Notes: generated by a model from the sequence alone, not told the origin. A stretch of DNA of 64,000 nt from an uncultured Bdellovibrionales bacterium (GCA_964384235.1 CAYLJX010000001.1:241709-305708), one strand, 5' to 3'; shown: positions 29,487 to 54,371, counted from the stretch's first letter. Numbers and translations are program-made.

Positions 29487-29520
29487 CCCCCCTGCCAACT
29501 GACAGAGTCTCCTTTGCCCC

Positions 29521-29560
29521 GAAGTCGTCACGCACGGCTCTCGGGGCGATCTTTTTTTAA
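29521..29560 (+). terminator. Intrinsic terminator after the 29112-29486 gene
   Basis: Hairpin ccccgaag...ctctcgggg followed by cgatcttttttt. Confidence 0.5.
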
Positions 29561-29750
29561 GAGCCTGTCTGTAAATCCTCTTTCGTCGCGAAATTTCAAA
29601 ATTTTGAGCGAAAGACGTGAAGGCGGAGGAGGGCTACTCGAAGGGTAACCCGACGAAACATGAACGTTTTGCAGCCAAAATTTTGAAATTGCAGCAGAAT
29701 ACGGGGTTTACAGACAGGCTCTCAAGAAGAAAAGCCCGCCACCGAATGTC
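29549..29750. repeat. ~200-nt long imperfect palindrome (MITE-like element or structured RNA)
   Basis: Outer arms ttaagagcctgtctgtaaa and tttacagacaggctctcaag. Inner arms gaaatttcaaaattttgagc and gccaaaattttgaaattgc. The central ~70 nt is non-palindromic. Confidence 0.4.
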
Positions 29751-29798
29751 GGCAACGGGCCTGTCGGAATGGGTTCCCAGGGAACTTGTCCCGGAACC

Positions 29799-30486: not shown

Positions 30487-30509
30487 TTACCAGCCGTTCG
30501 ATTCTCCTC
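30487..30509 (+). repeat. Inverted partial copy of the tRNA-Ala 3' end
   Basis: cgttcgattctcctcaggtc is the reverse complement of plus positions ~30565-30585 inside the tRNA gene, so it forms an inverted repeat around the terminator. Confidence 0.5.
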
Positions 30510-30520
30510 AGGTCATAAAT

Positions 30521-30554
30521 CAAAACTCCTCTGTAAAAAAACAGAGGAGTTTTG
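30521..30554. terminator. Strong stem-loop terminator downstream of tRNA-Ala
   Basis: Perfect hairpin aaaactcctctg-taaaaaaa-cagaggagtttt. Confidence 0.65.
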
Positions 30555-30563
30555 ATTTAGATG

Positions 30564-30634
30564 TGGACCTGAGGAGAATCGAACTCCTGCCTCTGCAATG
30601 CGAATGCAGCGTTGTACCACTTAACTACAGGCCC
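30564..30634 (-). tRNA. Candidate tRNA-Ala (CGC), folded by hand
   Basis: Proposed minus-strand sequence GGGCCTGTAGTTAAGTGGTACAACGCTGCATTCGCATTGCAGAGGCAGGAGTTCGATTCTCCTCAGGTCCA. Acceptor stem carries the G3:U70 alanine identity pair. Anticodon loop TTCGCAT gives anticodon CGC. T-arm GGAGTTCGATTCTCC. The D-stem could not be paired cleanly and the CCA end is not encoded, so this is a candidate that needs a tRNA search. Confidence 0.55.
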
Positions 30635-35408: not shown

Positions 35409-35419
35409 AGCATTGAAGG

Positions 35420-35461
35420 AATAGAGAATATTGAATAAAGAATGAGGAATAAGGAATAAGG
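35420..35461 (-). repeat. Six tandem heptamers (CYTYATT on mRNA; AATNNNG on + strand) filling the secA 5' leader
   Basis: Minus strand reads ccttatt ccttatt cctcatt ctttatt caatatt ctctatt and ends 8 nt before the secA ATG. No Shine-Dalgarno sequence. Confidence 0.65.
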
Positions 35462-35500
35462 AAAAAATCCCTTTCCTGGGCCGTTATATTTTATAGAATA

Positions 35501-35529
35501 CCAAGGAAAACGGCTCCAGTAAAGGAGCC
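35501..35529 (-). terminator. Intrinsic terminator after hpf
   Basis: Minus strand reads ggctcc-tttact-ggagcc-gttttcc. Confidence 0.55.
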
Positions 35530-35565
35530 GAATCATTATTCGATATTCAAGATTCCTTTCTCCAC

Positions 35566-40020: not shown

Positions 40021-41166
40021 TCAGGAGAGCTGTTCGAAATGCGATAGAAGAAGCTCGGCACTCTTGTCCCAGGAGAAGGCTTGGAGGCGCGATTTCCCGC
40101 GCGTCAGACACATCTTCCTCGCTTCCTCATCAGTGCACACACTATACAATATATTTTCACAAGCGACAAGGTTCTTCGGATCGAAGTACAGCGCCGCATC
40201 CTCTCCCGTCTCCCGCAGGCTCGGGATATCCGATGCCGCCACCGGCACCCCGACCGCAAAAGCCTCCAGAAGCGGAATCCCGAATCCCTCGTACAGACTG
40301 GGGAACACGAACCCCCTGGAGAGCTTCATGAGCACGGCCAAGTCCTTCTGATCGACAAACCCAGGAAAGATGACGTCTTCCCTGATTTGAGTACGATCGA
40401 TCACGTCGTCGAGACGCGTATCGGCGTGGTGTCCCTGACGGTTGCCGACGAGCACGAGCTTCATCCCGGGCACGCGTTCCTTGAGACGCGCGAAAGCCTC
40501 GATCAAAAACGGGATGTTCTTGCGCGGCTGAAGCGTACCGACGGAGAGAAGAAACTCTTTGGGAAGCGAATACTTCTCACGGACCATGGCGTTTCTTTCC
40601 GTATCATCACTTTCCACGACGAAATCTTCTCCCAGGGCATTAGGCACGACCGCGATCTTCTCCGGATCAGTCCCGTAATACTTCACGATCTCGTCCTTGG
40701 TGAACCGTGACGGCGCGATGACAAGCGCTGCCCGACGAAGCGAGGGCGGGATGAGGAGATCAAGGAAAAATCTGTCCTTCCGGCCGATGAGCTCCGGATA
40801 CGCGGCAAAAGACACATCGTGGATATGTGTCGCGACTTTGGTTCGTCTCGGGACAAAGAATGGCAGTATGTACTGCGTGTGAAAAACATCGACATGGTGA
40901 CGGAACAGAAACCACGGCAGCGTCACGAAGTTCCACACGAAACGGTTGCGCCCGCGAAGCGACACGATCTCCACGTTTTCCTGTCCGACACAACCGAGCG
41001 TACCGTAGAGTGCGGCGACCTTTTCCGGCTCCCGTTCGTTAGTCATGAGGAGGTAGCGGTTCTTCTTGTCGAGCCGCAGGAGCGCCTTGGTCAGGTTGAA
41101 CACCACCGCCTCATCGCCGGTGCGCTTTTTGCCAAGCAGTCTGATGTCGATCGCAAAGGTTTTCAT
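40021..41166 (-). CDS. Glycosyltransferase family 1 (GT4-type)
   Basis: C-terminal EGFGIPLLEAFAVGVPV motif and the RKN motif. 381 aa. Confidence 0.8.
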   Translation of the reverse strand: MKTFAIDIRLLGKKRTGDEAVVFNLTKALLRLDKKNRYLLMTNEREPEKVAALYGTLGCVGQENVEIVSLRGRNRFVWNFVTLPWFLFRHHVDVFHTQYILPFFVPRRTKVATHIHDVSFAAYPELIGRKDRFFLDLLIPPSLRRAALVIAPSRFTKDEIVKYYGTDPEKIAVVPNALGEDFVVESDDTERNAMVREKYSLPKEFLLSVGTLQPRKNIPFLIEAFARLKERVPGMKLVLVGNRQGHHADTRLDDVIDRTQIREDVIFPGFVDQKDLAVLMKLSRGFVFPSLYEGFGIPLLEAFAVGVPVAASDIPSLRETGEDAALYFDPKNLVACENILYSVCTDEEARKMCLTRGKSRLQAFSWDKSAELLLSHFEQLS

Positions 41167-42752
41167 GACGGATTTCTATCATTTTCCATCATCAACGTTC
41201 CCAAAGCAAGAAACAGGAAAAAGAATCCCAGAAGGATACCGGAGTTGAACATGTTGAACACCGTGATGCCTGCCCAGACGGAAGCGACGAAAAGAAAGAG
41301 CGGCCGCATGTTTTCCTCTCCGCGAAACCATCCGTACACCGCCGCCGCGATCACCGAGAACCAGAAAACGACAAACGCGACCAGTCCGATGAGTCCGCTC
41401 CCGAGCCAAATCTCCAAGAACATATTGCTCGCGTTGAGTCCCGCACCGCGCTCATCAGAACCAAGGAAAGCCGCCGCGCTCCCCCATCCGATACCCAGGA
41501 GAGGGTGTTCCCGTATCAGGCCCCAGACTTTTCCATAGATTTCCTTGCGGATCGAGACGTTGGGGTCGTCACGGACGATTTCCTTCACGAAGTGCCCGGC
41601 AACTTTCTCCGCCTCGATATCCTCCAGATCGATGTGTCGGCAACCGAAAGCGGCAAGCTCCGAGACGTCACCGATCTTTTCCGGGAGCGCGACATCCTGC
41701 CCGCACGAGACCGTGATTCTCTGCAGTCCTGACCCGACACTCTGCACGCGGTTCCCAAGTTGGAACGACGTGAGGTGCAGACCCCATACCAACCCGAGTG
41801 CGATGACAAACGAAACAGCGACCGTCCCGACAAACACCATTCCCTCCCTGATCCGCCGCGAGAGGAGAAGTAATCCAGCAAACGTTACGGCACCGATGAC
41901 CGCCCCCAGCCACGCGCTCCTCGCCACGGTGATGATGAGAACGACAAACGAGAGGATAAGCATGACAGCCATGAGCCATGCCTTCGCATCCCGCATTTTC
42001 CGCATGATACATGATACATGATACATGATACTTCCCTGTTCTTTGGAGAAGAACGTCTGATACGCCAAAACATACATCACACCCAAGACTACGATAACGA
42101 AAAGTCCCAGCCAATCCGCCTCGCTGAACGTGGCGTTCGGCCGTCCGGCCATCACCTGAAAGCTTTCCTGCCCCGCGAGGAACCGCACATTCTGCCACAG
42201 GGCATAGCCAAAAACGACGAGCGAAGAACCGAGAAAAAACGGCAGCACCTGCCTGACATCCTCATACGATCGCAGATAGAGACGGGAGAGGAGATAGATC
42301 AGTCCGAACGACGAAAGTACCAGCGCCTGCTTGAACGCGAGCGCCAGGGACGGAGCGTTGAGACTCGCGAAGAACGCCCCGATCGGCACGAACGCGAGAC
42401 AAAAATCGAACCAGCGGAGACGAAGCGGCGCAAGCGACAGTCTCCCCATGACCAGGCGCACCGCGAGAGCGAGCGAGAGGAGCACGGCGATCCACTGATA
42501 CGGCCGAAGCATCATCCCGAAACCTTCCGGAAGGAGATTGACCGTCTCATAAGGAAGCATCCCGATGAGAAAGAGAAATACCCACCCCGGCCGATAGAGA
42601 GCAAAAAGAAAAGCAACGAATGAAAAGAAAAGAAAATTGACCGGATCAAGCGGCACCACACCAGTGTTTGCGAGCACGATCAACACGACGCCAAGGAAGA
42701 TATTCCCCAGGACAAGCATCAGTTTGTTCTGACTCCACCCGAAAAAATTCAT
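41163..42752 (-). CDS. O-antigen ligase/polymerase-like membrane protein (Wzy_C domain)
   Basis: About 12 TM helices and a periplasmic loop with the Wzy_C pattern (AGLNASNMFLEIWLGSGLIGL). Start overlaps the upstream GT4 stop (ATGA). Contains an in-frame (ATGATAC)x4 tract. Confidence 0.65.
   Translation of the reverse strand: MNFFGWSQNKLMLVLGNIFLGVVLIVLANTGVVPLDPVNFLFFSFVAFLFALYRPGWVFLFLIGMLPYETVNLLPEGFGMMLRPYQWIAVLLSLALAVRLVMGRLSLAPLRLRWFDFCLAFVPIGAFFASLNAPSLALAFKQALVLSSFGLIYLLSRLYLRSYEDVRQVLPFFLGSSLVVFGYALWQNVRFLAGQESFQVMAGRPNATFSEADWLGLFVIVVLGVMYVLAYQTFFSKEQGSIMYHVSCIMRKMRDAKAWLMAVMLILSFVVLIITVARSAWLGAVIGAVTFAGLLLLSRRIREGMVFVGTVAVSFVIALGLVWGLHLTSFQLGNRVQSVGSGLQRITVSCGQDVALPEKIGDVSELAAFGCRHIDLEDIEAEKVAGHFVKEIVRDDPNVSIRKEIYGKVWGLIREHPLLGIGWGSAAAFLGSDERGAGLNASNMFLEIWLGSGLIGLVAFVVFWFSVIAAAVYGWFRGEENMRPLFLFVASVWAGITVFNMFNSGILLGFFFLFLALGTLMMENDRNPS
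42004..42031 (-). repeat. Perfect (ATGATAC)x4 heptamer tract inside the Wzy-like CDS
   Basis: Encodes the peptide ...IMYHVSCIM.... The 28-nt tract sits in frame in an otherwise intact ORF. Changing the copy number by one unit would shift the frame. Confidence 0.7.
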
Positions 42753-43978
42753 ATCGTCATTTCCGAAAAAATCTTCTCCACGAACTTGTCCCAACTGAAT
42801 TGTACAATCTGGGCATGAGATCGGGCAACGAGCCTCTCCCGGAGTGCTTCATCACCGAGCAACCGCTCCATCCCCATGACGATCGAATCAGTATCGTGAG
42901 GATCGCAGTACTGTACCGCTTCACCCCCCACTTCCGGAAGTGATGAATTGTTCGAAGCAAGTACCGGCGTTCCCTTACACATCGCCTCCAAGACCGGCAG
43001 ACCGAACCCCTCGTAAAGCGACGGATAGACAAAGAACACCGCGCCGCGATACAGCGCCAGCAGATCTTCTTCCGGGACGAACCCCAGAAGCTTCACTTTT
43101 TCTTCCAATCCTAATTCCTTCACCAACCCCTCTACATCAGTCGCCAACTTATTTTCTTTCGAAAAAATTTTTCCAGAAATAACAAGAGGTGGGATATCGG
43201 CATTTTTTTGTATCTTGTATCTTGTATCTTGTATCTTTGCTTGAAGCATTGCATATGCTTCAAGCAGTGTCTTGGCATTCTTCCTCACTTCCAATCCCCC
43301 ACCATGATAAATGTAGCCCTGTTCGAGGCCGTACTTTTTCAAAACCGTGTCCACTGTCTCATCAGAGATAACTTCACGGAAACGCGGACTGACATCCGGA
43401 TACGCCACAACGATCCGTTCTTCCGAAAGACCGAGATGCTTCACAAGGTCTTGCTTCGTGGCTTCGGACACCGCGACGATCTGGTCTGCACTTCGGATGC
43501 CCCCCTCCACTGCCTTCCAGTGAAGCCTCTGTGACATCTTGCCTAAATATTCCGGAAACAATTTTGGGATGACATCATGTACGACCATTACATGTTTCAG
43601 CTTGTAGCTGGTAGCTGGTAGCTTGTAGCTTTCAAAAGAAGTTGAAGACTGGTAAAGAGAAAGGAAGACGTCACAGCCGTCGGCAGCGGCGCGCTTGGCG
43701 AGCTCGCGCTCCCAGAGCCACTTCCTCGGCACATCATCACGCTTCCACCACTTCGGGAGAAAACTCTTCACTTCAAAGTTCGCTGGAAGATCAATATTGA
43801 TGGGTTCTTCGGTATACAAAATGTATCTTGTATCTTGTATTTTGTATTTTGTATTCCCTTGATACGTAATACCGGATACATGATACTCGGTTAACTTTTG
43901 TAAAAAGTTAGCCGTTACTTGCCCGATACCGGTTCCGGGCTTTCTCAAAAATGACGCGTTGATACCTATTTTTTTCAT
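42749..43978 (-). CDS. Glycosyltransferase family 1 (GT4-type) carrying three in-frame heptamer-repeat insertions
   Basis: N-terminus MKKIGINASFLRKPGTGIGQVTANF and C-terminus EGFGLPVLEAMCKGTPV. Repeat-encoded segments are YHVSGITYQGNTKYKIQDTRYILY, YKLPATSYKLK and KIQDTRYKIQ. Confidence 0.75.
   Translation of the reverse strand: MKKIGINASFLRKPGTGIGQVTANFLQKLTEYHVSGITYQGNTKYKIQDTRYILYTEEPINIDLPANFEVKSFLPKWWKRDDVPRKWLWERELAKRAAADGCDVFLSLYQSSTSFESYKLPATSYKLKHVMVVHDVIPKLFPEYLGKMSQRLHWKAVEGGIRSADQIVAVSEATKQDLVKHLGLSEERIVVAYPDVSPRFREVISDETVDTVLKKYGLEQGYIYHGGGLEVRKNAKTLLEAYAMLQAKIQDTRYKIQKNADIPPLVISGKIFSKENKLATDVEGLVKELGLEEKVKLLGFVPEEDLLALYRGAVFFVYPSLYEGFGLPVLEAMCKGTPVLASNNSSLPEVGGEAVQYCDPHDTDSIVMGMERLLGDEALRERLVARSHAQIVQFSWDKFVEKIFSEMTI
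43209..43236 (-). repeat. (TGTATCT)x4 tract inside the GT4 CDS
   Basis: Four perfect tandem heptamers that encode KIQDTRYKIQ. Confidence 0.7.
43603..43630 (-). repeat. (KGTAGCT)x4 tract inside the GT4 CDS
   Basis: tgtagct ggtagct ggtagct tgtagct, encoding YKLPATSYKL. Confidence 0.65.
43822..43856 (-). repeat. (TGTATYT)x5 tract inside the GT4 CDS, near the N-terminus
   Basis: tgtatct tgtatct tgtattt tgtattt tgtattc, followed by gatacgtaataccggatacatgatac. Confidence 0.65.
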
Positions 43979-44004
43979 TCTTCTATTGTATCAAGGAAAA
44001 GAAA

Positions 44005-44046
44005 AGTTGAGAAAAGAAAAGCGCCCCCAAGGAAACCTCAGGGGCG
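44005..44046 (-). terminator. Intrinsic terminator ending the minus-strand transcript at 44.05-44.73 kb
   Basis: Minus strand hairpin gcgcccc-13 nt loop-ggggcgc followed by ttttcttttctc. Confidence 0.55.
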
Positions 44047-44413
44047 CGGTGTGTCTACGATGTAGGCGGGCGGACGATCGTCACCGATCAGTCGTGTCGG
44101 CCGGTACACAGATCTCAGCCGTGTAGTACCGACACCGTCGATGGTCGCGATCGTCGAGGGGTTGCGATGTTTCCATGCTTCCTCCTCGGTTGTGCGCGAT
44201 AGGCGGATGGCGCGGCGCTTCCCGACGTTGGGAGGGGCCGATGCCACTGGAGAAGTGCTCCCGGTGGCCTACGCGCGATTCGATGATACTACTTCTCTGC
44301 CGAGACGACCTCGGGGTCCAAAGGACAGGTGGTGAGCTCCAGTCAGCCTTTAGGCAAACTTCCGGAAACCGGACGCACACAGGCGAGACGTTCGCTCCCT
44401 TCCGACAGCAAAG
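44047..44413 (-). ncRNA. Candidate structured RNA (~360 nt), or structured 3' UTR of the 106-aa gene; family unassigned
   Basis: GC-rich (~65%) with no plausible ORF in any frame. Dense in stem-loops such as cttccgac..gtcggaag and gtgtcgg..ccgacac. Bounded by its own terminator and preceded by a strong promoter at 44766-44793. Not tmRNA, RNase P or SRP RNA by motif inspection. Confidence 0.3.
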
Positions 44414-44734
44414 CTATCCGGTCGGAAGCAGGCGCTCCCAAAAGGCCCAGTAGCAGCGGAGCCGCCACATGAAGAATCGGACTTGCCACGACCCCATGAG
44501 TCCCCAGGCGAAGTCCCGCTGTTTCGGGTCTTCGGGAATAGGGAGGATCTGAAAGAGGTTGAGGACAGCCCCATACAGCCCGCCGAAGCCCATGTAGTAC
44601 GCGGCCTTACGAAAAGCGTCACGACGCATCATGGGAGAAAAGCTGCTATTGAGACCATCCTGGATGCAAAGAACCGCTTTGCGGATAGCCACGTCATCGC
44701 TATCCGGACAAACAAGTACCGGTTTCTGTTTCAT
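44414..44734 (-). CDS. Hypothetical small protein (106 aa), Trp-rich C-terminus
   Basis: GGAGGA Shine-Dalgarno 8 nt before the ATG and a TTGCAA-16-TATACT promoter upstream. One hydrophobic segment. No family recognised. Confidence 0.4.
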   Translation of the reverse strand: MKQKPVLVCPDSDDVAIRKAVLCIQDGLNSSFSPMMRRDAFRKAAYYMGFGGLYGAVLNLFQILPIPEDPKQRDFAWGLMGSWQVRFFMWRLRCYWAFWERLLPTG

Positions 44735-44765
44735 CGGAGCTTCCTCCAGAAGGAACTTGCCCTAC

Positions 44766-44793
44766 AGTATACCGCCCGGGAAAATATTTGCAA
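44766..44793 (-). promoter_or_regulatory. Candidate sigma70 promoter (TTGCAA-16-TATACT)
   Basis: Minus strand reads ttgcaaatattttcccgggcggtatact. It drives the 106-aa ORF and the downstream structured region. Confidence 0.5.
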
Positions 44794-44797
44794 ACAC

Positions 44798-45676
44798 CTA
44801 CCGGAACCAGACGATGAGCATGGAGCCTGAGACGAGGAGTGCCGTGCCGATGACGTGGCGCCTCGTCACCTGTTCCCCGAACATCATGATCCCGAGAACC
44901 AGCGCGAAGAACGGCATGACCCGCTTGATGGCAAAGACTTCGCTCGCTTTGGCACTCTCCAGGGCGACCGTCGCCGGGCCGTTTTCGAGGAACGCGATGA
45001 CGAGACCCGCGAGAACCATCACGCCGAGTACTTTGCTCCACTGCCCGCTCATCCGGAGTTCCCGGATCGTCTGTCGTTCGTTGGTAAAAAGCACCAAGAG
45101 GAGAAACCCAAAAGCGATCCCGACATGAAACACTGCCGCCGAGAAAAGACCCGAACCGGACTCCGCCACAGCCACTCCCATGAAGACCGACGTGAAGGAA
45201 TATGAGACGACCGTGACGGCGAAATATCCCGTGACCGCGAGCGCCTCGCGTGACAGCTTCTCCTTGGCCGAAAAGAGGATGGCACCCGCCACGACCACCG
45301 CGATACCGACGATCTGCATCATGGTCGGGAGTGTCCCCCGCACGACGTATTCAAGCGGGACGATGAGGAGCGCCGTGAGCGAGATGAAGGGCATCAGTTT
45401 GGACAGGGCCGCCTTGTCGAGGGCGCGGTAGGCCGTCCAGGCGGCGAGCACGTTGAGGACGATGACCATCGCAGAGGCGAAGAAAAACCTGTTTGAAAGA
45501 TGCCCGACGCTCTCCCCGGACATACCATACCCGACCGCGAGCGCGATCCCTGCCACGGCAAAAGACACGAGACCGAGCGTGTTGTTGACACCCTTCTTCT
45601 CGAGCGACTTCTTCTTGAGCGCCCATCCGAACGCCTGCCCGAACGCGGACAAGAGTGAGAGAAATATCCAACTCAT
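44798..45676 (-). CDS. EamA/DMT-family transporter
   Basis: 292 aa with 10 TM helices and duplicated EamA domains. Confidence 0.75.
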   Translation of the reverse strand: MSWIFLSLLSAFGQAFGWALKKKSLEKKGVNNTLGLVSFAVAGIALAVGYGMSGESVGHLSNRFFFASAMVIVLNVLAAWTAYRALDKAALSKLMPFISLTALLIVPLEYVVRGTLPTMMQIVGIAVVVAGAILFSAKEKLSREALAVTGYFAVTVVSYSFTSVFMGVAVAESGSGLFSAAVFHVGIAFGFLLLVLFTNERQTIRELRMSGQWSKVLGVMVLAGLVIAFLENGPATVALESAKASEVFAIKRVMPFFALVLGIMMFGEQVTRRHVIGTALLVSGSMLIVWFR

Positions 45677-45787
45677 ATAATACTTTTCCTCAGCATATCA
45701 CCCCGACAGACAAAAGAAAAAGGAGAGGTCGGCGTTCCGTTGTTTTGGAACGCGTTCCTCTCCCTGCGAGGGTCGATGCCCTCTGAA

Positions 45788-46564
45788 TCAGACCTTCTTC
45801 GGCATGAACTTGGCAAGCATCATGCCGTGGACGTTGGCCGCGTTGGCCTGCAAGATCAGCTTGTCCGGCGTGCGGTTCGGCGAATGGCCGAAGCACTCCA
45901 GATAGGCTGCCTTGATGCGCGCACCCGTGCCGACGGCGATCAGATGGATCATCACGCCGTGGAGGCCCCACCGCGGAAACGACTCAGTCGTATTCTTGGC
46001 GAAGAACTCCTGGTAGCGCTCGAAGAACACCAGCGCATTCTCGACACGATGCCGTTGGTGGAGGTTGTAGCCCGGCGACTGGATGTAGAACATCCCGTCG
46101 ACACCGGCCATGGCCGCCTGCATGCCACCCCAGAAACGCATCATGTTGCGGTCGTTGTGGTTGGCATCGTGATCGGGAAAGATGATGCTCCCCACCACAC
46201 CGTCGCACTCGCCGCGCTCGATCATGCCGAGATGGCGGATCATGGCGTAGGGTGAGTGTTCGCCGTCGGCGTCCATGCACCCGACCACATCGGCGTCCGA
46301 GTCGGCTCCCCACCTGTAACCGGCGAGAATGTTGCCGGCGTTGCTGAGGTTCTTGGCGTTGTGGCGGACCGTGATCCAGGAGTACACCTCGCTGGCCTGG
46401 TCGAGCACTTCGCGCGTACCGTCGGTCGAGTTGTCGTTGATCAACAGGACCTCCAACTGGTGATCGTGTTGGTCCAAGATGATCTGCACATCGGCGAGCT
46501 CGTTGACGAGACGTTCCGCCGCTTGCGCGACGTTATACGCGGACGAGAAGATGCGGATCTTCAT
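45788..46564 (-). CDS. Glycosyltransferase family 2, DPM1-like soluble polyprenyl-phosphate glycosyltransferase
   Basis: 258 aa GT-A fold (LINDNSTDGT, DADGEH). No C-terminal TM helices. Confidence 0.7.
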   Translation of the reverse strand: MKIRIFSSAYNVAQAAERLVNELADVQIILDQHDHQLEVLLINDNSTDGTREVLDQASEVYSWITVRHNAKNLSNAGNILAGYRWGADSDADVVGCMDADGEHSPYAMIRHLGMIERGECDGVVGSIIFPDHDANHNDRNMMRFWGGMQAAMAGVDGMFYIQSPGYNLHQRHRVENALVFFERYQEFFAKNTTESFPRWGLHGVMIHLIAVGTGARIKAAYLECFGHSPNRTPDKLILQANAANVHGMMLAKFMPKKV

Positions 46565-46642
46565 TTCATGCCCTTCTCCCCTCTAAAGGGGTAAGTAAGT
46601 TGTTCGAGAACTGCTGCCAACACTCATTCATGTTGACCATAT

Positions 46643-46671
46643 AGTATAGCACTTTTTTGATAAAAAGTCAA
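46643..46671 (-). promoter_or_regulatory. Candidate sigma70 promoter for the GT2 gene at 45788-46564 (TTGACT-17-TATACT)
   Basis: Minus strand reads ttgactttttatcaaaaaagtgctatact. Partly palindromic with the plus-strand ttgacc. Confidence 0.5.
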
Positions 46672-46691
46672 TATCAGTCGGAGAGCTTGGT

Positions 46692-46720
46692 TTGCTAATT
46701 TTCGCTCTTTTTCGTACAAT
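46692..46720 (+). promoter_or_regulatory. Candidate sigma70 promoter for the + strand glycan operon (TTGCTA-17-TACAAT)
   Basis: AT-rich island upstream of the dehydrogenase gene; tttgctaattttcgctctttttcgtacaat. Confidence 0.45.
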
Positions 46721-46747
46721 AGAAGCAATATTCTCTAAGGTTTCTCT

Positions 46748-48037
46748 ATGACACAATCAACTCAGAAGACGGTATGCGTGGTCGGTCTCGGGTATGTGGG
46801 TTTGCCTTTGGCTGTCCGTGCCCGGGAACGCGGCTATCGCGTCATCGGCTTCGATACGAACGAGGAAAAGATCACCCTCATCAACGAGGGCAAGAGCCCG
46901 ATCATGGAAGAGTTCCTGGAAACGCGCATAGGACAGTTCCACCCGGAAGCGACCAGCGACCCGGCCATGATCAAGGAAGCCGACATCGTCCTCATCTGCG
47001 TCCCCACTCCGGTCGACGAGATGCGCAATCCCGACTACGGTCCGGTGGAAGACGCCTCGCGTCTCATCGCTTCCAATCTCAAGAAAGGCGCCCTCGTCGT
47101 CCTCGAATCGACCGTCAACCCTGGCGTAAGCGAAGAGATCGTCGCCCCTATCTTCGAAGCGGCCGGTCATACGGTCAGTACCGATGTCTACCTCGCCCAC
47201 TGCCCGGAGCGCATCAATCCCGGTGACAAGAAGTGGAACGTGACCAACATCCCGCGCGTCCTCGGTTCTTTCGACGAAAAGGGGCTCTCGATCGGATTGG
47301 AATTCTACCGCTCCATCGTCGATGCCGAAATCCGCCCGATGAAATCCATCCGCGAAGCCGAAGCGGTCAAGATCCTCGAAAACTCCTTCCGTAACGTGAA
47401 CATCGCTTTCGTCAATGAGCTGGCGCGCTCCTTCGCAAGGCTCGATATCGACGTCAAGGACGTCATCGACGGTGCTGCTACCAAACCGTTTGCCTTCATG
47501 GCCCACTATCCGTCCTGCGGTATCGGCGGCCACTGCATCCCGGTCGATCCGTACTATCTCGTCGAATACGCGAGGAAGACCTCCGACTTCGACCACAAAT
47601 TCCTCTCGCTCGCCCTCGAGATCAACCGCGACATGCCGGTCTATACCGTCGAACTCCTGCAGGATGCGCTGAACGAAGTGAGGCTCCCGATGAACGGCAC
47701 GAAAGTCGCCGTACTCGGTATTGCCTACAAGGCGAACGTCGACGACTCGCGCGAATCGCCGGCGTTCGAGATCATCAAGCATTTGAAAAAGCATCACTGC
47801 CAGGTAGAGACATACGACCCGTACATCCTCAGGGAATCCACCATGAAGAACCTCGATGAGATCCTCGCTGCCTGCGACGCCGCCGTCCTCGTCACCAACC
47901 ACAAGGATTTCGTGGAGAGCGTCACTCCTGAGCTTCTCAAGAAGCACGATATCAAGGTCATCATCGACGGCAAGAACTGCCTCGACAAAGAAGCTTTCAA
48001 ACAGTCAGGGATCGTCTATCACGGGATAGGACGGTGA
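46748..48037 (+). CDS. UDP-sugar (UDP-GlcNAc/UDP-ManNAc) 6-dehydrogenase family
   Basis: 429 aa. N-terminal Rossmann fold (VCVVGLGYVGLPLA), catalytic Cys region and C-terminal domain motif AYKANVDDSRESPA. Confidence 0.85.
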   Translation: MTQSTQKTVCVVGLGYVGLPLAVRARERGYRVIGFDTNEEKITLINEGKSPIMEEFLETRIGQFHPEATSDPAMIKEADIVLICVPTPVDEMRNPDYGPVEDASRLIASNLKKGALVVLESTVNPGVSEEIVAPIFEAAGHTVSTDVYLAHCPERINPGDKKWNVTNIPRVLGSFDEKGLSIGLEFYRSIVDAEIRPMKSIREAEAVKILENSFRNVNIAFVNELARSFARLDIDVKDVIDGAATKPFAFMAHYPSCGIGGHCIPVDPYYLVEYARKTSDFDHKFLSLALEINRDMPVYTVELLQDALNEVRLPMNGTKVAVLGIAYKANVDDSRESPAFEIIKHLKKHHCQVETYDPYILRESTMKNLDEILAACDAAVLVTNHKDFVESVTPELLKKHDIKVIIDGKNCLDKEAFKQSGIVYHGIGR

Positions 48038-48039
48038 TT

Positions 48040-48130
48040 CAGTTGTCCAGCTAACGGGTTAAAAAGTTAACGGGTTAAAGAATACCGATCGGAACTCGTT
48101 AACCCGTGAACCCGTTAACGGAAAAACAGA
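48040..48130. repeat. GTTAAC-containing palindromic element (8-nt periodic arms)
   Basis: Left arm gttaacgg gttaaaaa gttaacgg gttaaag. Right arm cgttaacc cgtgaacc cgttaacg. A second copy follows the small gene at 48381-48472. Confidence 0.55.
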
Positions 48131-48134
48131 ACGT

Positions 48135-48380
48135 ATGTTCGGCATCATCAAGCTCATCATCTGGATCGCGGGGGTGGCGGCTATCGCCTATTTCGCGTTG
48201 CCCTACTTCGGCTATGAGGTGAACCTCAACTATTGGAACGAGCGCAAGGCGGCGTGTCAGGAGAAACTCCAGCAGTGCCAAAAGGATCTCATCAAGACCG
48301 GTCTCGACGGCGCCAAAGAGAAGTGCAATATCCAGTGCGTCGACCCGCAACTGCTGATACGGAAATCCGAAGACAATTAA
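48135..48380 (+). CDS. Hypothetical small membrane protein (81 aa) with 4 Cys in the C-terminal half
   Basis: N-terminal TM helix. Flanked on both sides by copies of the GTTAAC element. Confidence 0.35.
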   Translation: MFGIIKLIIWIAGVAAIAYFALPYFGYEVNLNYWNERKAACQEKLQQCQKDLIKTGLDGAKEKCNIQCVDPQLLIRKSEDN

Positions 48381-48472
48381 TCAGTTAACGAGTTAAAAAG
48401 TTAACGAGTTCGGATACGGAATCCCGGTTTCAACCCGTTAACCCGTGAACCTTTTAACCGTATAACAGAAAA
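48381..48472. repeat. Second copy of the GTTAAC-containing palindromic element
   Basis: cagttaacgagttaaaaagttaacgagtt ... aacccgttaacccgtgaaccttttaaccg. Confidence 0.55.
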
Positions 48473-48475
48473 AAT

Positions 48476-49444
48476 ATGCGCCTCATCGTCAACCTGCCGG
48501 CTTACAATGAAGAAGAGAAGCTCGGAGAAACCATCCACAGGATCCCCCGCCAGTTCGACGGCATCGACGAGGTGCTCGTCCAGGTGATCGATGACGGATC
48601 GCAGGACCGCACCATGGAAGTCGCGAAACAAGCGGGGGCCGATTTTGTCTACACGAACGGCGTCAACCGCGGCATCGGCAAGACGTTCCGTCACGCCGCC
48701 TTCCGTGCGCTCGAGAACGGCGCCGACATCATGGTCAATATCGACGCTGACGGCCAGTTCGATCCACAGGATATTTCCAAGCTCATCGCCCCGATCCTCG
48801 CAAACGAAGTCGACATGGTGAGCGCCGACCGATTCGATCACCTCAAGGCCAAGAACATCCCCTGGGTCAAGGACACGCTGAACCGCCTGGCTGCCAAGCT
48901 CATCGGCAGTTTCATGAACGTCAATATCAAGGACCTCACCTGTGGATTCCGCGCCTATTCTCGCGAGACGCTTCTCAAGCTCAACCTCCCCGGCGACTTC
49001 ACCTACACGCAGGAAACCATCATCGACGCCCTCGGCAAGGATCTCAAGATCCTCTGGGTCCCCGTCGAGGTCACCTATTTCGCCGAGCGCAAGTCGCGCG
49101 TGGTGCGAAGCGTCTGGAAGTACGTCTCTAACAGCTTCCGTCTGATCCTCAAGACCGTCCGCGACGTGCGACCCATGAAGTTCTTCGGCGTGCCGGGACT
49201 CGCCCTCGTCACGCTCGGGGTCACCGTCTTCATCGTCTTCCTCTTTCTCTACTTCCAGGAGTTCAAGATCACCCCGTATCGCAACTACCTCTGGTTTGCG
49301 TCCGTCACCTTCCTCATCGGGCTGCAGTTCCTCATCTTCGCCTTCATCGCCGACATGATCAAGTCGAGCCGCAAGCTGACGGAAGACATGATGTACCAGT
49401 TCAAGAAAGACAAATACAAAAAACAGTCAACAATTAACAGTTAA
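48476..49444 (+). CDS. Glycosyltransferase family 2 with C-terminal TM helices (GtrB/ArnC-like polyprenyl-phosphate glycosyltransferase)
   Basis: GT-A domain (VIDDGSQDRT, DADGQ) plus two C-terminal TM helices, the architecture of bactoprenol-phosphate sugar transferases. Confidence 0.8.
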   Translation: MRLIVNLPAYNEEEKLGETIHRIPRQFDGIDEVLVQVIDDGSQDRTMEVAKQAGADFVYTNGVNRGIGKTFRHAAFRALENGADIMVNIDADGQFDPQDISKLIAPILANEVDMVSADRFDHLKAKNIPWVKDTLNRLAAKLIGSFMNVNIKDLTCGFRAYSRETLLKLNLPGDFTYTQETIIDALGKDLKILWVPVEVTYFAERKSRVVRSVWKYVSNSFRLILKTVRDVRPMKFFGVPGLALVTLGVTVFIVFLFLYFQEFKITPYRNYLWFASVTFLIGLQFLIFAFIADMIKSSRKLTEDMMYQFKKDKYKKQSTINS

Positions 49445-49461
49445 CTTCGGGTCCACGCCTT

Positions 49462-49492
49462 TGTTCTCTGTTTACTGTTAGCTGTTAACTGT
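49462..49492 (+). repeat. Tandem heptamers (CTGTTNN x4) immediately upstream of the GT4 ATG
   Basis: ctgttta ctgttag ctgttaa ctgttat then ATG. No Shine-Dalgarno sequence. The same motif family occurs in the FtsA-like leader. Confidence 0.55.
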
Positions 49493-49493
49493 T

Positions 49494-50582
49494 ATGAAGA
49501 TTCTTTTCATATCGAGAGCGTATCCCCCTGTGGTAGGTGGCATCGAGAACCAGAACTACGAGCTCTCGGTGTGGCTCCCGAAACTCGCAGAGACCAGGAC
49601 GATCGCCAATACGCGCGGGAAACCTTTTCTCCCTTTTTTTACCCCTTACGCCCTTTTGAGGGCCATTTTTCTCGTGCCGCGTTACGACGTGCTTCTTCTC
49701 GGTGACGGCGTCCTCGGCATCGTCGGCTGGTTCGTGAAATTTTTCTATCCGAAGAAAACCGTCGTCTCGGTCGTCCACGGTCTCGATCTCACGTTCACGA
49801 GCGGTATTTACCAACGCTTCTGGGTACGGAAATTCCTGCCCGCGCTCGACGGACTGATAGCCGTCGGAAATGAGACCATCCGTCAGGGTGTCGCCCGCGG
49901 CATCCCGGAAGACAAATTCTTCTTCGTCCCTAACGGCGTGGACACGGAGAAATATTTCGGCAGACACGATCGCAAGGAACTGGAAAAGATTCTCGGCCTC
50001 CCGCTCGAAGGCAAACGTGTCCTCCTCACATCCGGCCGCCTCGCGAAACGAAAGGGTGTCGCCTGGTTCATCCGCTCTGTCATGCCGAAACTTCCGGAGA
50101 ACATCCTCTACGTCGTCGCCGGTGACGGGGCCGACCGGGAAAACATCAATCGAGCGGTGCAGGAAACCGGCCTCGCCTCGCGCGTGAAACTCCTCGGCTA
50201 TGTTTCGGACGAAGTACGAAACGTCCTCCTCAACACCAGCGACCTCTTCATCCAGCCCAATATCCGGGTCAAGGGGGACATGGAAGGCTTCGGTATCTCC
50301 GTCATCGAGGCCGCTTCATGCGAACTCCCCGTCATCGCCTCGCGCCTCGAAGGTCTCCAGGACGCCATCCAGGACGGCGAGAACGGCCTCCTGGTAGAAA
50401 CGGAAGATGCCGACGGATATGTCTCCGCTATCACAGGACTCCTCGATGATCTCGCCCGTCTCAGTGACTTCAAATCAGAAGTCCGACGCTACACAGTGGA
50501 ACATTTCTCCTGGGAACACATAGCCTCGCGCTACATCGCCGTGCTGGAAAAAATCGCTGAAATGGGGCATAATGGGAAGTAA
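49494..50582 (+). CDS. Glycosyltransferase family 1 (GT4-type)
   Basis: 362 aa. EGFGISVIEAASCELPVIAS motif and N-terminal GT-B domain. Confidence 0.8.
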   Translation: MKILFISRAYPPVVGGIENQNYELSVWLPKLAETRTIANTRGKPFLPFFTPYALLRAIFLVPRYDVLLLGDGVLGIVGWFVKFFYPKKTVVSVVHGLDLTFTSGIYQRFWVRKFLPALDGLIAVGNETIRQGVARGIPEDKFFFVPNGVDTEKYFGRHDRKELEKILGLPLEGKRVLLTSGRLAKRKGVAWFIRSVMPKLPENILYVVAGDGADRENINRAVQETGLASRVKLLGYVSDEVRNVLLNTSDLFIQPNIRVKGDMEGFGISVIEAASCELPVIASRLEGLQDAIQDGENGLLVETEDADGYVSAITGLLDDLARLSDFKSEVRRYTVEHFSWEHIASRYIAVLEKIAEMGHNGK

Positions 50583-52486
50583 TGACCTCCCTTTTGTATC
50601 CAATCTTGTTTCTTCTGGCGCTGCCCCTGGTACTCTTTCTGCCGGGGTGGGCATTCGTCGCTTTCCTCGAACGGAAAGGTGATATTTTTACCGCACTGGA
50701 ACGGGCCGTACTCGCCGTGGCCATGAGCCTCGTATCCGTGGATGCGATCTTTCTCATCCTCGATCGTCTGCATGTCCCGCTTCGCACCGCGACGATTCTT
50801 CCTGTCATTGTCATATTCAGCCTCATATTCTTTTTTCTTGGAAAGAAGAAAATCCCGCAGGAAAAGACCGGACCGACGAAAACGGTTCCCATCGCTTTCC
50901 TCGTCATTCTCGCCGCGATCGTCGCCATCAAGACGGTCTATTTCCTCCCCTCCGTCATCCCGAACTCGACCGACCTCGGCCACCACATGTACTGGGTCAA
51001 GCAGCTCGTGACCGAACAGTCGATCCCGGAATACGCCGAACGTGAGATCATCCAGAAAGACGGGAAATATGTCATCGGTGAACCCGAGCCGATCTCCGAT
51101 TTCATCGTCGGCGAACACCTCGTCCTCTCGGCCATCCAGATGCTCTCCGGCATGGAGTTCGACTCTGTCTATCCGTCGCTCACGCTCTTTTTCATCCACC
51201 TTTTCACGGCCATCGCTCTCTACGTCCTGGCGCTCCGTCTCTTCGCCGGAACGAAATACCAGGAAAAAATCGCCCTCACGGCCCTTCTCCTCATCGGCCT
51301 CCTCTATTCCTTCTCACCGCCGGAGATGAAGTACATCCTCGGAGGCGTAGTCGGAAACACGTTCGGGAACCTCCTCATCCCTGCGATCTTTCTCCTCCTT
51401 GTCATCGCCCTCCGCCTGCGACGCCCAGACCTTCTCGCCACGGCTGTCCTCCTCATGTTCGGCCTCGCCTACACGCACCACCTCTCGACCCTCCTCTTTG
51501 CCATCGTCCTTGTCTCGGTCGCTTTCTTTCTCATTCTCCTCAACCGACGCTTCGTCCGAGACAACATCCTCCCTCTCGTTTTTTCAAGAAACGTCCTTTC
51601 GGTCTTCACGCTCTGTCTCATCTTTTTCTTTCTTGTCTGGACGCCTTCCTACATCCGAAACAGCGCCGTGAACACCGTCATCGGAGCGCCCACTGCGAGC
51701 GAACACCTCGGCTTCTCCTTTTCCCAGCTCAAATTCGCCGTCGGTGAACCCCGCATGATGTTCGGTCTCCTCGGTATCATTCTCCTTCTCGCCTCCAAGA
51801 AACTGCGGACTTCCGAGACGGCCGCCCTCCTTCTCGGCTGGACCCTGCCGCTCATCCTCCTCGTCATGGAACCGGATCTCACCCGCATCGATCTCCCTTC
51901 GGGTCGGGTCGCCAATTATGCCATCTTTCCCCTCGTGCTCCTCGCCTCCTTCGCCCTGGTGTGGGTCCTGGAAAAGATGAAGAAGCAGTCTTTTCTCCCG
52001 GTCTTTCTCAGGAATGGTGTCTTCTTCCTGCTCTTCCTCCTCATCATGCACAACGGCTTTTTCGACAACAGCTTCTATCAGAGAGGTAAAAACGAAGGCG
52101 CCCGAAAAATGCTCTCGCTTCGGGATGCCTCGCAGTACCTCGGAGAGACGCTTCCCCCGGAAGCCGCCGCCGTCCATGACCACATCAACATCCTCGGTGA
52201 TTCCTGGATCAAACTTTCCTTCATGCGCGATTACAACTTCCCCTTTTACCGCGCCAATCTCTTCCGATATGAGCGCATCACCGACAAGCAGGAGAAGTGC
52301 ACGCTCTACATGATCAGCCAGCCGAACTCCGCCGACGCTACCAAATGTCTCCAAGACCTCGATGTAAAAGCCATCCTCGTGAATGAGTCCATAGACGGGC
52401 CGCAGTTCCGGCACTTCCGCAATTTCTCCCTCACGTATAATGGCCCGTATTATTCGACGTACTGGCACGCTCCTCTGAAAAAGTAA
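50582..52486 (+). CDS. Polytopic membrane protein, possible GT-C-type glycosyltransferase or polymerase
   Basis: 634 aa with about 13 N-terminal TM helices and a C-terminal soluble domain. No DE motif. Start overlaps the upstream stop (TAATG). Confidence 0.5.
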   Translation: MTSLLYPILFLLALPLVLFLPGWAFVAFLERKGDIFTALERAVLAVAMSLVSVDAIFLILDRLHVPLRTATILPVIVIFSLIFFFLGKKKIPQEKTGPTKTVPIAFLVILAAIVAIKTVYFLPSVIPNSTDLGHHMYWVKQLVTEQSIPEYAEREIIQKDGKYVIGEPEPISDFIVGEHLVLSAIQMLSGMEFDSVYPSLTLFFIHLFTAIALYVLALRLFAGTKYQEKIALTALLLIGLLYSFSPPEMKYILGGVVGNTFGNLLIPAIFLLLVIALRLRRPDLLATAVLLMFGLAYTHHLSTLLFAIVLVSVAFFLILLNRRFVRDNILPLVFSRNVLSVFTLCLIFFFLVWTPSYIRNSAVNTVIGAPTASEHLGFSFSQLKFAVGEPRMMFGLLGIILLLASKKLRTSETAALLLGWTLPLILLVMEPDLTRIDLPSGRVANYAIFPLVLLASFALVWVLEKMKKQSFLPVFLRNGVFFLLFLLIMHNGFFDNSFYQRGKNEGARKMLSLRDASQYLGETLPPEAAAVHDHINILGDSWIKLSFMRDYNFPFYRANLFRYERITDKQEKCTLYMISQPNSADATKCLQDLDVKAILVNESIDGPQFRHFRNFSLTYNGPYYSTYWHAPLKK

Positions 52487-52488
52487 CT

Positions 52489-52869
52489 ATGCAGACAATG
52501 ACTGAAAAAACGACTCTTTGGATCACGGGAGGTATCATCCTTCTCTCCTTCGCCGTGCTCCTCATCGCCGGGGAACGCGCGGTGCGGACACCCTCTGACG
52601 GACTCTGGGCGGTCTCCTTTTCCGATCCGGAAAGCCGGGAGTTTTCCTTCGATGTGAAAAACTTCGCCGGCCCTGACGCACATTTCCGCTGGTCTCTCCT
52701 TCAGGAAGGCAGGAAAGAAGAGGAAGAGATCGTCTCCGGCGCCTCTGACGTGGTAAGCAAAGCATCACTTCGCATCTCTCCAGAAACCGGGAAACTCTCC
52801 GGCAAAGTGATCATCCGCGTGACTGACGAAGCCGGCGTCACGAGAGAGCTCTACAAGATACTTCCTTAA
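52489..52869 (+). CDS. Hypothetical membrane-anchored small protein (126 aa)
   Basis: N-terminal TM helix. Lies directly after the polytopic protein. Confidence 0.35.
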   Translation: MQTMTEKTTLWITGGIILLSFAVLLIAGERAVRTPSDGLWAVSFSDPESREFSFDVKNFAGPDAHFRWSLLQEGRKEEEEIVSGASDVVSKASLRISPETGKLSGKVIIRVTDEAGVTRELYKILP

Positions 52870-52879
52870 CCCTGCCTCT

Positions 52880-54328
52880 ATGCCTACTCTTGCCCGTTCG
52901 ATTTTCTGGCTTTTCTTCGCGGAATTCGCCTTCTACATCTCCGGCTACCTCGTCCAGATGGGAGCCGGCCGGATCCTGGGACCAGCCGACTACGGCCGCT
53001 TCGGTCTGGTCGTCACGCTCACCCTCCTCGTCGCCAATCTCATCGGGAACGGCGTCCCCATCGCCATGAGCAAGTACCTGAGCGAAGCCGCCACCGTGAA
53101 ACCAGAACTCCTCGCTTCCATCAAGAGAAGAGGAGCACTCATCCAGGCACTCTTCATGGGGGCAGTGACCGTCCTGTTCTTCCTCTTCGCTCCGGGATTC
53201 TCACGCCTCATCGGCGATCCCGCGCTCGCGCCGTTCTTCACGCTCTCCGCGTTCATCATTCCCTGTTTCGCCGCGGACGCCTTTTACTTCTACTACTATT
53301 CCGGCACCAAACGCTTCAATATCCAGTCCTTCCTCAAGATCTCACGCGCTGTCATGCGCATCACCATCATCCTCGGGCTCGCCTACGCCTTCCAGCTCAA
53401 GGGCATCATCGCCGGATACATCTTCGTGCCGCTCTCCGTCTTCCTCATCGCCCTCGCCATCGATATCTTCTCCCGGAAGAATACTGAGACGAAACCCGTC
53501 GAAGCCTCCTTCCCGATCCGAAAGATCGCCCTCCTCGCCCTGCCTGTCACCGTCTTCCTCGTCCTCTCCGAGACCTTCATCTCGTTCGACATCTACCTCC
53601 TCAAATACTTCTTTCATGACGATAAGCTCGCCGGCTTCTACAACGCGGCCCTGAACGTCGCCCGCATCCCCTCCTACCTCTTCTACGCCCTCACCCTCAT
53701 CCTCCTTCCCGTGATCGCCGAATCCTCCTCGACGAACGACGTCAAGAAAATGAGCGGGATGGTGACTTTGGCGCTCCGTTTCATGCTTCTTCTCTCCTTT
53801 CCTTTCATCGTCTTTTCGACGGTTTATCCCGAGACCGTCATCGGCCTCCTCTTCGGCCACGCCTTCACTTCGGCCGCCTCGTTCCTGCCTCTCCTCTCGG
53901 TCGGCACCAGTCTCATCGCTATCTTTTATGTCCTCGCTTTCGCCTACAAAGGGATCGATCGCATCGGTATTCCGCTTCTCTTCATGGGAGCGGGGATTTT
54001 CCTTAACGTCCTCCTCGACCTTTCCCTCTTCCCTCTCATCCGGGCCGATGCCGTGCCGCTCGCCAAGGCGCTCTCCGGTCTCGTCCTCCTGCCGTTTTTT
54101 CTTGTCTCATTGAGGCGGACTTTCCAGGCCACCGTCAGTCTCGGATCATTCTCGCGGATGCTCCTCGCCGCCGCCATCCTCTTCCTCGCGGCGCGCTTCT
54201 TCGACGACTCACTCACGAGCCTCCTCATCATCGCCCCGCTTCTCACGGCCGGGTACGTCGCCATCCTCTTCTTTCTCGGAGAGATCAAAAAAGAGGACTT
54301 CGCAGTCCTCAGTCATTCTTCCAAATGA
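52880..54328 (+). CDS. Polysaccharide biosynthesis flippase (Wzx/MOP superfamily)
   Basis: 482 aa with about 14 TM helices and the N-terminal pattern of Polysacc_synt proteins. Confidence 0.75.
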   Translation: MPTLARSIFWLFFAEFAFYISGYLVQMGAGRILGPADYGRFGLVVTLTLLVANLIGNGVPIAMSKYLSEAATVKPELLASIKRRGALIQALFMGAVTVLFFLFAPGFSRLIGDPALAPFFTLSAFIIPCFAADAFYFYYYSGTKRFNIQSFLKISRAVMRITIILGLAYAFQLKGIIAGYIFVPLSVFLIALAIDIFSRKNTETKPVEASFPIRKIALLALPVTVFLVLSETFISFDIYLLKYFFHDDKLAGFYNAALNVARIPSYLFYALTLILLPVIAESSSTNDVKKMSGMVTLALRFMLLLSFPFIVFSTVYPETVIGLLFGHAFTSAASFLPLLSVGTSLIAIFYVLAFAYKGIDRIGIPLLFMGAGIFLNVLLDLSLFPLIRADAVPLAKALSGLVLLPFFLVSLRRTFQATVSLGSFSRMLLAAAILFLAARFFDDSLTSLLIIAPLLTAGYVAILFFLGEIKKEDFAVLSHSSK

Positions 54329-54371
54329 CGGAATTCGATCCGAATTTACCGTCATTGATCCTGAAACAAGT

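Follow-up and report, generated by a model that had tools for sequence, protein, structure and literature searches.

What occupies the gap between the EamA and GT4 genes of this glycan locus: a gene, a structured RNA, or a remnant? The gap lies in a stretch of 64,000 nucleotides (nt) deposited under an uncultured Bdellovibrionales bacterium (GCA_964384235.1, CAYLJX010000001.1:241709-305708), which we call the window and number from its first letter. An earlier note, made from the sequence alone, had described positions 44005-44793 as a promoter-to-terminator transcription unit in which a small open reading frame (ORF) is followed by about 360 nt of GC-rich, structured noncoding sequence. It offered an unclassified large noncoding RNA (ncRNA), a cis-regulatory 3' untranslated region (3' UTR), or a decayed pseudogene as candidates. 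Our analysis supports a transcription unit with noncoding sequence downstream of its ORF, which by position is a 3' UTR. The element belongs to no described RNA family and is no recognizable pseudogene, and a large structured ncRNA is unproven. The reading that we prefer, with a probability of roughly 45%, is that about 750 base pairs (bp; 44797 to ~44048) are young, species-specific DNA in which an orphan small ORF is followed by a long 3' UTR whose end carries a structured module and a terminator. The host of this element is a Moraniibacteria-like bacterium of the Candidate Phyla Radiation, and the locus is a cell-envelope glycan locus.

All parts of the unit lie on the minus strand. Read in that direction, the order is the EamA-family transporter gene (44798-45676, Pfam EamA), a promoter-like site, the small ORF, the noncoding stretch, a terminator, and the GT4 glycosyltransferase gene, with the EamA gene ending at 44798 and GT4 starting at 43978. 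The start signals proposed by eye were recovered. The sigma-70-like promoter, TTGCAA-16-TATACT (44766-44793), has 9 of 12 consensus matches and begins 5 nt past the EamA stop codon; four promoter-like sites were observed in 43500-45300, against 0.9 expected. The Shine-Dalgarno (SD) sequence GGAGGA (44742-44747), read from the sequence, stands 7 nt upstream of the ATG at 44734. This ATG opens an orphan small ORF of 106 amino acids with five tryptophans, here called ORF106 (44414-44734), which ends in a TAG stop codon at 44414-44416. Coding potential was evaluated with a codon log-likelihood trained on 38 long ORFs of the window, on which real genes in frame score 0.27 ± 0.16 per codon. ORF106 scored +0.12 per codon and was coding-like over its first two-thirds (first 70 codons). 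Its GC content at the first, second, and third codon positions (GC1, GC2, and GC3) was 0.59, 0.43, and 0.67, respectively, compared with 0.61, 0.38, and 0.69 for the genome.

The searches for relatives of ORF106 gave little more than ORF106. Among 5.8 billion proteins it matched itself alone, and a HMMER search of 1.84 billion protein representatives found no homolog, the sole other match being weak (E = 3.8e-4). This match, P0068, is a translated tandem-repeat protein and was judged spurious. ORF106 matched nothing in Pfam or NCBIfam. AlphaFold2 predicted an all-helical protein at low confidence, with a predicted local distance difference test (pLDDT) score of 63, and the model was therefore unfit for a fold search. 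Hydropathy reached a maximum of 1.19, with no clear transmembrane segment.

The ORF106 stop codon is followed by 367 nt (44047-44413) that extend to a terminator, the first one after the GT2-EamA-ORF106 series, and it is this placement that makes the stretch a 3' UTR by position. Its GC content is 61.6%, lower than the estimate of about 65% in the earlier note; the region has the highest GC content among the long gaps of the window (0.59-0.62 vs 0.30-0.56). The impression that it holds no credible ORF in any frame was borne out by the codon statistics. No frame of the six exceeds a codon log-likelihood of 0.01 per codon, and GC content is flat across the codon positions (0.62, 0.59, and 0.63). 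None of the six translated frames matched Pfam or NCBIfam. A concatenated six-frame query likewise found no match among 5.8 billion proteins, but this is a weak negative, as even an antisense ORF called on contig L020 went unrecovered. An insertion of a single A at 44289/44290, present in four independent assemblies, shifts every frame, which shows that the reading frame is unconstrained here and again argues that the stretch is noncoding. The insertion site falls in an AT-rich linker, GAAGTAGTATCATCG (44295-44280), within the 5' part of the stretch (44279-44398), which is otherwise GC-rich and shows neither a coding signal nor a robust fold. A promoter scan inside the noncoding stretch found no promoter-like site. 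Templates of structured RNAs are enriched among long intergenic regions of high GC content (PMC8632094).

We then asked how much of this stretch folds better than its composition would lead one to expect. The earlier note had called it packed with stem-loops; this holds for the 3' 208 nt, whose predicted fold is unusually well defined, but not for the 5' part or for the 367 nt as a whole, both of which are ordinary. The whole 364-367 nt had a minimum free energy (MFE) z score of -1.8 relative to dinucleotide shuffles, and 17 of 55 windows of equal GC content from the genome folded as well. Several sub-segments were also ordinary (z from +1.2 to -0.5), including two within 44279-44398 (+1.17 and -0.40). 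All four of the stem-loops named by eye do exist, and most of those seen by eye are the chance product of a sequence of 62% GC. One of the four, an inverted repeat (I2) with arms CTTCCGAC...GTCGGAAG, forms a hairpin around the ORF106 TAG stop codon (44399-44428) with a free energy of -15.4 kcal/mol (z = -2.46); 3 of 200 shuffles folded as well.

The 3' segment is predicted to fold into three modules. The first is a predicted three-way junction (44194-44276, helix probabilities 0.88-0.99), in which a 10-bp closing helix (GCGCG-UAGGC with GCCUA-CGCGC) surrounds two hairpins, one of them with the GGAG...CTCC stem. Over 87 nt, it has a free energy of -40.7 kcal/mol (z = -3.28), a value reached by 0 of 200 shuffles, and its MFE structure makes up 44% of the ensemble. 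The second is a GAGGAGG:CCCCUC hairpin (44156-44187, z = -4.17), with an MFE structure that makes up 94% of the ensemble. The third is an interrupted hairpin of about 30 bp (44073-44155), formed by inverted repeat I3, with CGATCG-containing arms at the base and GTGTCGGTAC...GTACCGGCCGACAC arms above (-42.5 kcal/mol, z = -3.26, 1 of 200 shuffles, MFE structure 48% of the ensemble). Together, the three modules (44071-44278) have a z score of -4.27, and the MFE structure accounts for 16.6% of the ensemble. When 208-nt windows were taken in 50-nt steps on both strands, this segment came first of 2552 window-strands both in low ensemble diversity and in MFE frequency, with its two grid neighbors second and third in the latter; in GC-corrected MFE it was 21st. 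The low ensemble diversity was stable to the choice of window boundaries and was reached by 2 of 300 shuffles. Beyond the three modules, a small hairpin (CUAC-AUC-GUAG, 44053-44066) carries an A/G single-nucleotide polymorphism (SNP) at its 3' edge (44054), where the G allele adds a C-G pair.

The unit closes with an intrinsic terminator (44011-44047), as clean as the earlier note had made it. It has a 12-bp stem (44047-44021, 9 G-C pairs), a 3-nt loop, and a TTTTCTTTTC tail, and folds at -23.6 kcal/mol (z = -5.71). The GT4 promoter, TTCTCA-17-TG-TACAAT (43985-44013), is outside the unit and marks its downstream boundary; its -10 region is common to the related locus L008. A pentanucleotide tract, (TTTTC)n, of about five copies on the minus strand (43996-44021) lies between the terminator and the GT4 -10 box and overlaps the -35 element, and is possibly another slippage site affecting GT4 expression. 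Within the structured segment, a mini-ORF of 31 codons (44176-44081) ends 34 nt before the terminator stem; its ATG (44176-44174) and an SD-like sequence would be buried in the second hairpin. Its GAGGAGG-N4-ATG is an excellent ribosome-binding site by sequence. The mini-ORF codon score is noncoding (-0.26 per codon), and its peptide, METSQPLDDRDHRRCRYYTAEICVPADTTDR, is highly charged and hydrophilic (mean hydropathy -1.29).

If the preferred reading of an orphan ORF with a long 3' UTR is correct, RNA polymerase would reach ORF106 from the EamA operon, the local promoter, or both, and would continue through it to the terminator. The last ~260 nt of the transcript would then fold into the three-way junction, the SD-burying hairpin, the 30-bp hairpin, the small hairpin, and the terminator, giving a compact and stable 3' end. 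Most likely, such an end would terminate transcription efficiently, insulate the GT4 promoter, and shield the transcript against 3' exonucleases, and it might also accumulate as a 3'-derived RNA. A stronger claim can be built on the modeled fold, namely that the last ~260 nt (~44278-44015) could be a new, species-restricted structured RNA, recently arisen or acquired and perhaps dual-function with the 31-amino-acid peptide, but we regard this as quite doubtful.

Comparison with known RNAs was uniformly negative at the element. With Rfam 15 at gathering thresholds, the whole window returned a single RNA, a tRNA-Ala, so the Infernal/Rfam search that had been suggested as a check found no family at the element, and the lack of tmRNA, RNase P, and signal recognition particle (SRP) motifs noted by eye agrees with the absence of any such Rfam match. 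In E-value mode (E up to 10), runs on 1201 nt and 291 nt gave chance matches only. The best match in the region was the terminator hairpin against ctRNA_p42d (14.9 bits vs a threshold of 50). Nucleotide searches were no more productive. Phage and plasmid collections gave no blastn match to the element, and two exact-pattern scans of JGI metagenomes and one of IMG/VR gave 0 matches. No copies were found elsewhere in the window, where blastn and tblastx returned only compositional, out-of-frame matches rich in proline and arginine, such as one at 15038-15196 that is interrupted by stop codons. The element boundaries carry no terminal inverted or direct repeats of the mobile-element type.

Variation among strains was compared in 12 locus sequences, namely the window and 11 independent contigs of the Logan and ENA assemblies, and three haplotypes were distinguished, whose sole differences are the A/G at 44054 and the A insertion at 44289/44290. 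Both polymorphisms flank the three strong modules, just outside them, but these are two events only and the arrangement has a chance probability of about 0.2. Divergence across the wider region, compared with contigs L001, L003, L004, and L005, is a mosaic. Within 42600-45120, a tract that spans the 3' half of EamA, ORF106, the noncoding stretch, and GT4, all strains are nearly identical (1-5 differences). In 45124-54356, divergence is about 9% over the 5' half of EamA (44 SNPs in 485 nt) and about 2.5% in L001 over the 9 kb that follow. The pattern points to recombination or to a recent sweep of this tract.

The gene order of the locus places the element in a position whose content changes between lineages. 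The nearest EamA homologs, from Moraniibacteriota-like genomes, are only 60-70% identical, and the order GT2-EamA-[slot]-GT4-Wzy is common to the window and its relatives. In six of the seven related loci (L007, L008, L009, L010/L011, and L023), the slot is filled by an HD_4/HD-domain gene of about 200 amino acids. The slot of L024, on a 767-kb Moraniibacteriota contig, is empty of the HD gene and measures 102 nt (L024 3883-3984), and that of L008 holds an additional 153-amino-acid ORF of no family (L008 7106-7567). Relatives have an intrinsic terminator directly after EamA, whereas the window has none between EamA and the ORF106 promoter-like site. Because the content of the slot differs among relatives, it is variable, with a filling unique to the lineage of the window, and it appears to be a site of gene turnover in the locus. 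Neither the 153-amino-acid ORF of L008 nor the rest of the relatives' loci showed any similarity to the element by blastn, nhmmer, or tblastx. In L010, and identically in L011, a leader of about 200 nt (L010 3264-3550) precedes the HD-domain gene, downstream of a promoter-like TTTACA...TACAAT site.

Several results weigh against a young small ORF with a long, partly structured 3' UTR. The last third of ORF106 scores as noncoding, so a chance ORF is possible. The fold of the whole 367 nt lies -0.56 standard deviations from the regression of MFE on GC content for same-strand windows of the genome, which is ordinary; the 5' 130 nt have no robust structure, and their fold changes with the common G allele at 44054. 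The statistics of fold definition were picked after the initial tests had proved ordinary. The opposite strand of 44071-44278 ranks 11 for MFE, so the signal may come from inverted repeats at the DNA level and not from a selected RNA. The element was carried by near-identical strains only, with no homolog elsewhere in the searches made, and although it is kept in all strains, the near-invariance of 42600-45120 is uninformative on selection. The main alternative is a non-functional relic, some 750 bp left from the removal or replacement of an HD gene, in which ORF106 arose by chance, the hairpins are accidental or the product of inverted duplication, and the terminator alone works. This explanation, which we consider somewhat unlikely, fits a sequence that is an orphan in every search and sits in a variable slot, a whole-region fold that is ordinary for its GC content, a 3' segment that folds well on both strands, the tolerated 1-nt insertion, and an ORF106 with a noncoding last third and a Trp-rich tail such as a GC-rich random frame would have. 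Many long GC-rich intergenic regions without homologs are described as either very rare ncRNAs or junk (PMC8632094). However, if the DNA were a relic, chance would have to explain the strong and ideally spaced SD sequence, the promoter-like site, and the coding-like usage over the first 70 codons of ORF106. High GC content without codon periodicity is also unlike neutral decay given the AT-rich spacers, unless the DNA is very young, and the 3' segment is the best-defined fold of the 2552 window-strands.

The remaining explanations assign the same DNA to an RNA gene of its own, to a lost protein gene, or to the control of GT4. That an independent, species-restricted small RNA (sRNA) of about 260 nt (~44278 to 44015) is transcribed from its own weak promoter, and maybe also encodes the 31-amino-acid peptide, seems improbable. 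The structured domain does begin right after the sole AT-rich stretch, with TAGTAT (44291-44286), a possible -10 box, about 10 nt upstream of the first helix, and it closes with the strong terminator; its three modules have z scores of -3.3 to -4.2 and as a set rank first for fold definition, and the ribosome-binding site of the mini-ORF is excellent. But the putative -10 box has no -35 element, the promoter scan has no site there, and the A insertion falls within the box. Moreover, the mini-ORF is noncoding in its codon usage and highly charged, and no homologs of this RNA were found. A decayed pseudogene, whether of the ancestral HD gene, of another frameshifted gene, or of a former 218-codon ORF (ORF106 plus 111 codons), is very improbable. 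The HD gene of six of the seven related loci stands in this very slot, the 819-nt slot of the window is close in length to those of L009 and L010 (805-892 nt), and the ORF106 frame remains open for 111 codons past its TAG. Yet a tblastn search with four HD proteins gave only scattered, non-collinear matches (E ≥ 0.04), the HD profile scored -1.2 bits against the six frames, and a frameshift-aware profile alignment scored 27.5 vs 25.8 ± 3.3 for shuffles, 54 of 200 of which reached the observed score. The positive control for this alignment, an HD gene altered by random replacement of 60% of bases and by three frameshifts, retained a score of 54.5. We rejected an HD pseudogene because the alignment shows no HD remnant. 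No frame matched Pfam or NCBIfam either, and the read-through frame has a GC2 of 0.59, against 0.38 in real genes, is as long in 5% of dinucleotide shuffles, and is shifted by the insertion in four assemblies; without an HD remnant, a family match, or coding statistics, the pseudogene offered in the earlier note is not supported. Least probable of all is a regulatory leader or attenuator for GT4-Wzy, in which the upstream RNA, or else translation of the mini-ORF, would control read-through of the terminator. The terminator is directly upstream of GT4 and the mini-ORF ends close before it, but GT4 has its own promoter downstream of the terminator and no antiterminator pairing able to compete was found, and both points argue against attenuation. 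The best alternative pairings of the terminator arms (-14.7 and -16.5 kcal/mol vs -22.2 for the terminator) are weaker and would have to draw on bases that are engaged in high-probability helices. The element matched no riboswitch or leader family and is absent from the relatives.

Compared with known systems, the element resembles several classes in part. Like long structured 3' UTRs and 3'-UTR-derived sRNAs, it runs from a stop codon to the terminator shared with the mRNA, has stable 3' hairpins, and has no obvious promoter of its own. The known enterobacterial examples, such as CpxQ, SroC, and DapZ, are conserved across species and have a conserved seed and known targets, whereas the element occurs in a single species and shows no detectable seed or target. 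With OLE, GOLLD, HEARO, ROOL, raiA, tmRNA, RNase P, SRP, and 6S RNA it shares a length of a few hundred nt, high GC content, and several predicted helices, but none of their Rfam covariance models matches it at E up to 10. Large bacterial ncRNA classes are defined by conservation and covariation over many genomes. Type I toxin-antitoxin mRNAs are highly folded and encode a membrane toxin in a short ORF with a buried SD sequence; here too a short ORF has its SD sequence sequestered in a hairpin of a compact, stable fold. The 31-amino-acid peptide, however, is strongly hydrophilic with noncoding codon usage, and its charge argues against a type I toxin. The opposite strand of 44047-44413 has no promoter-like site in the scan and thus no sign of an antisense RNA gene. 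The HD_4/HD-domain gene (PF13328/PF01966) occupies the same place, between EamA and GT4, in a slot of similar length, but has no residual similarity to the element at the protein, profile, or frameshift-aware level. The "unknown" class of GC-rich intergenic regions (GC-IGRs) described by the Breaker laboratory (PMC8632094) is similar in that its members are long, higher in GC content than other spacers, and without homologs even in close relatives. The element differs in following an orphan ORF inside an operon, and in belonging to a genome of 55% GC, which gives a weaker GC contrast than the AT-rich genomes best suited to the GC-IGR method.

Other features of the window were recorded alongside the element. 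Four heptanucleotide tandem tracts of about 4-5 copies each (42003-42031, 43208-43237, 43599-43631, and 43822-43855) are the sole period-7 repeats in the 64 kb. They lie just downstream of the element, inside GT4 (42749-43978) and a Wzy_C-like gene (41163-42794). A change in copy number of a 7-nt unit moves the reading frame, so both genes may be phase-variable. Five Logan contigs stop at 43208, the edge of one tract. The three GT4 tracts showed no copy-number difference in the two assemblies that span them (L003 and L004), and the tract at 42003-42031 was reached by no fetched contig.

Structured spots were also seen at a distance from the glycan genes. The most over-structured spot in the window is 30491-30634. 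There, downstream of a tRNA-Ala(CGC) gene (30563-30634, minus strand), come a perfect 19-bp hairpin (30559-30516) and then a copy, in inverted orientation, of the final 24 nt of the tRNA (30491-30514 vs 30566-30589, 92% complementary). Integration or recombination might have left this arrangement as a scar. Between two ORFs without a Pfam match, a 312-nt gap (29487-29798) contains an inverted repeat with 65-nt arms (29554-29618/29664-29728, 74% complementary), is among the most stable windows after GC correction, and matches no Rfam family. The 254-nt spacer from the alanyl-tRNA synthetase gene to rplU, the gene for ribosomal protein L21 (8808-9061, minus strand), had a residual z of -4.1 (rank 5 of 2552) and may be an unrecognized ribosomal protein leader; its Rfam matches were weak, sub-threshold, and nearby only. 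Upstream of secA, the spacer at 35409-35565 contains a 14-nt tandem repeat (35416-35467, 3.7 copies), and the window at 35421 (minus strand) had a GC-corrected MFE z of -3.3.

As it stands, the element is one more long GC-rich intergenic region and a low-priority orphan RNA candidate. The more useful results are the negative ones: no known RNA family, no HD pseudogene, and stem-loops seen by eye that are, for the most part, expected by chance at 62% GC. Should the 3' module prove to be a real RNA, it would offer a rare case of a structured RNA born recently within a single species, in a streamlined and uncultured bacterium of the Candidate Phyla Radiation, and it would adjoin glycan genes that look phase-variable.

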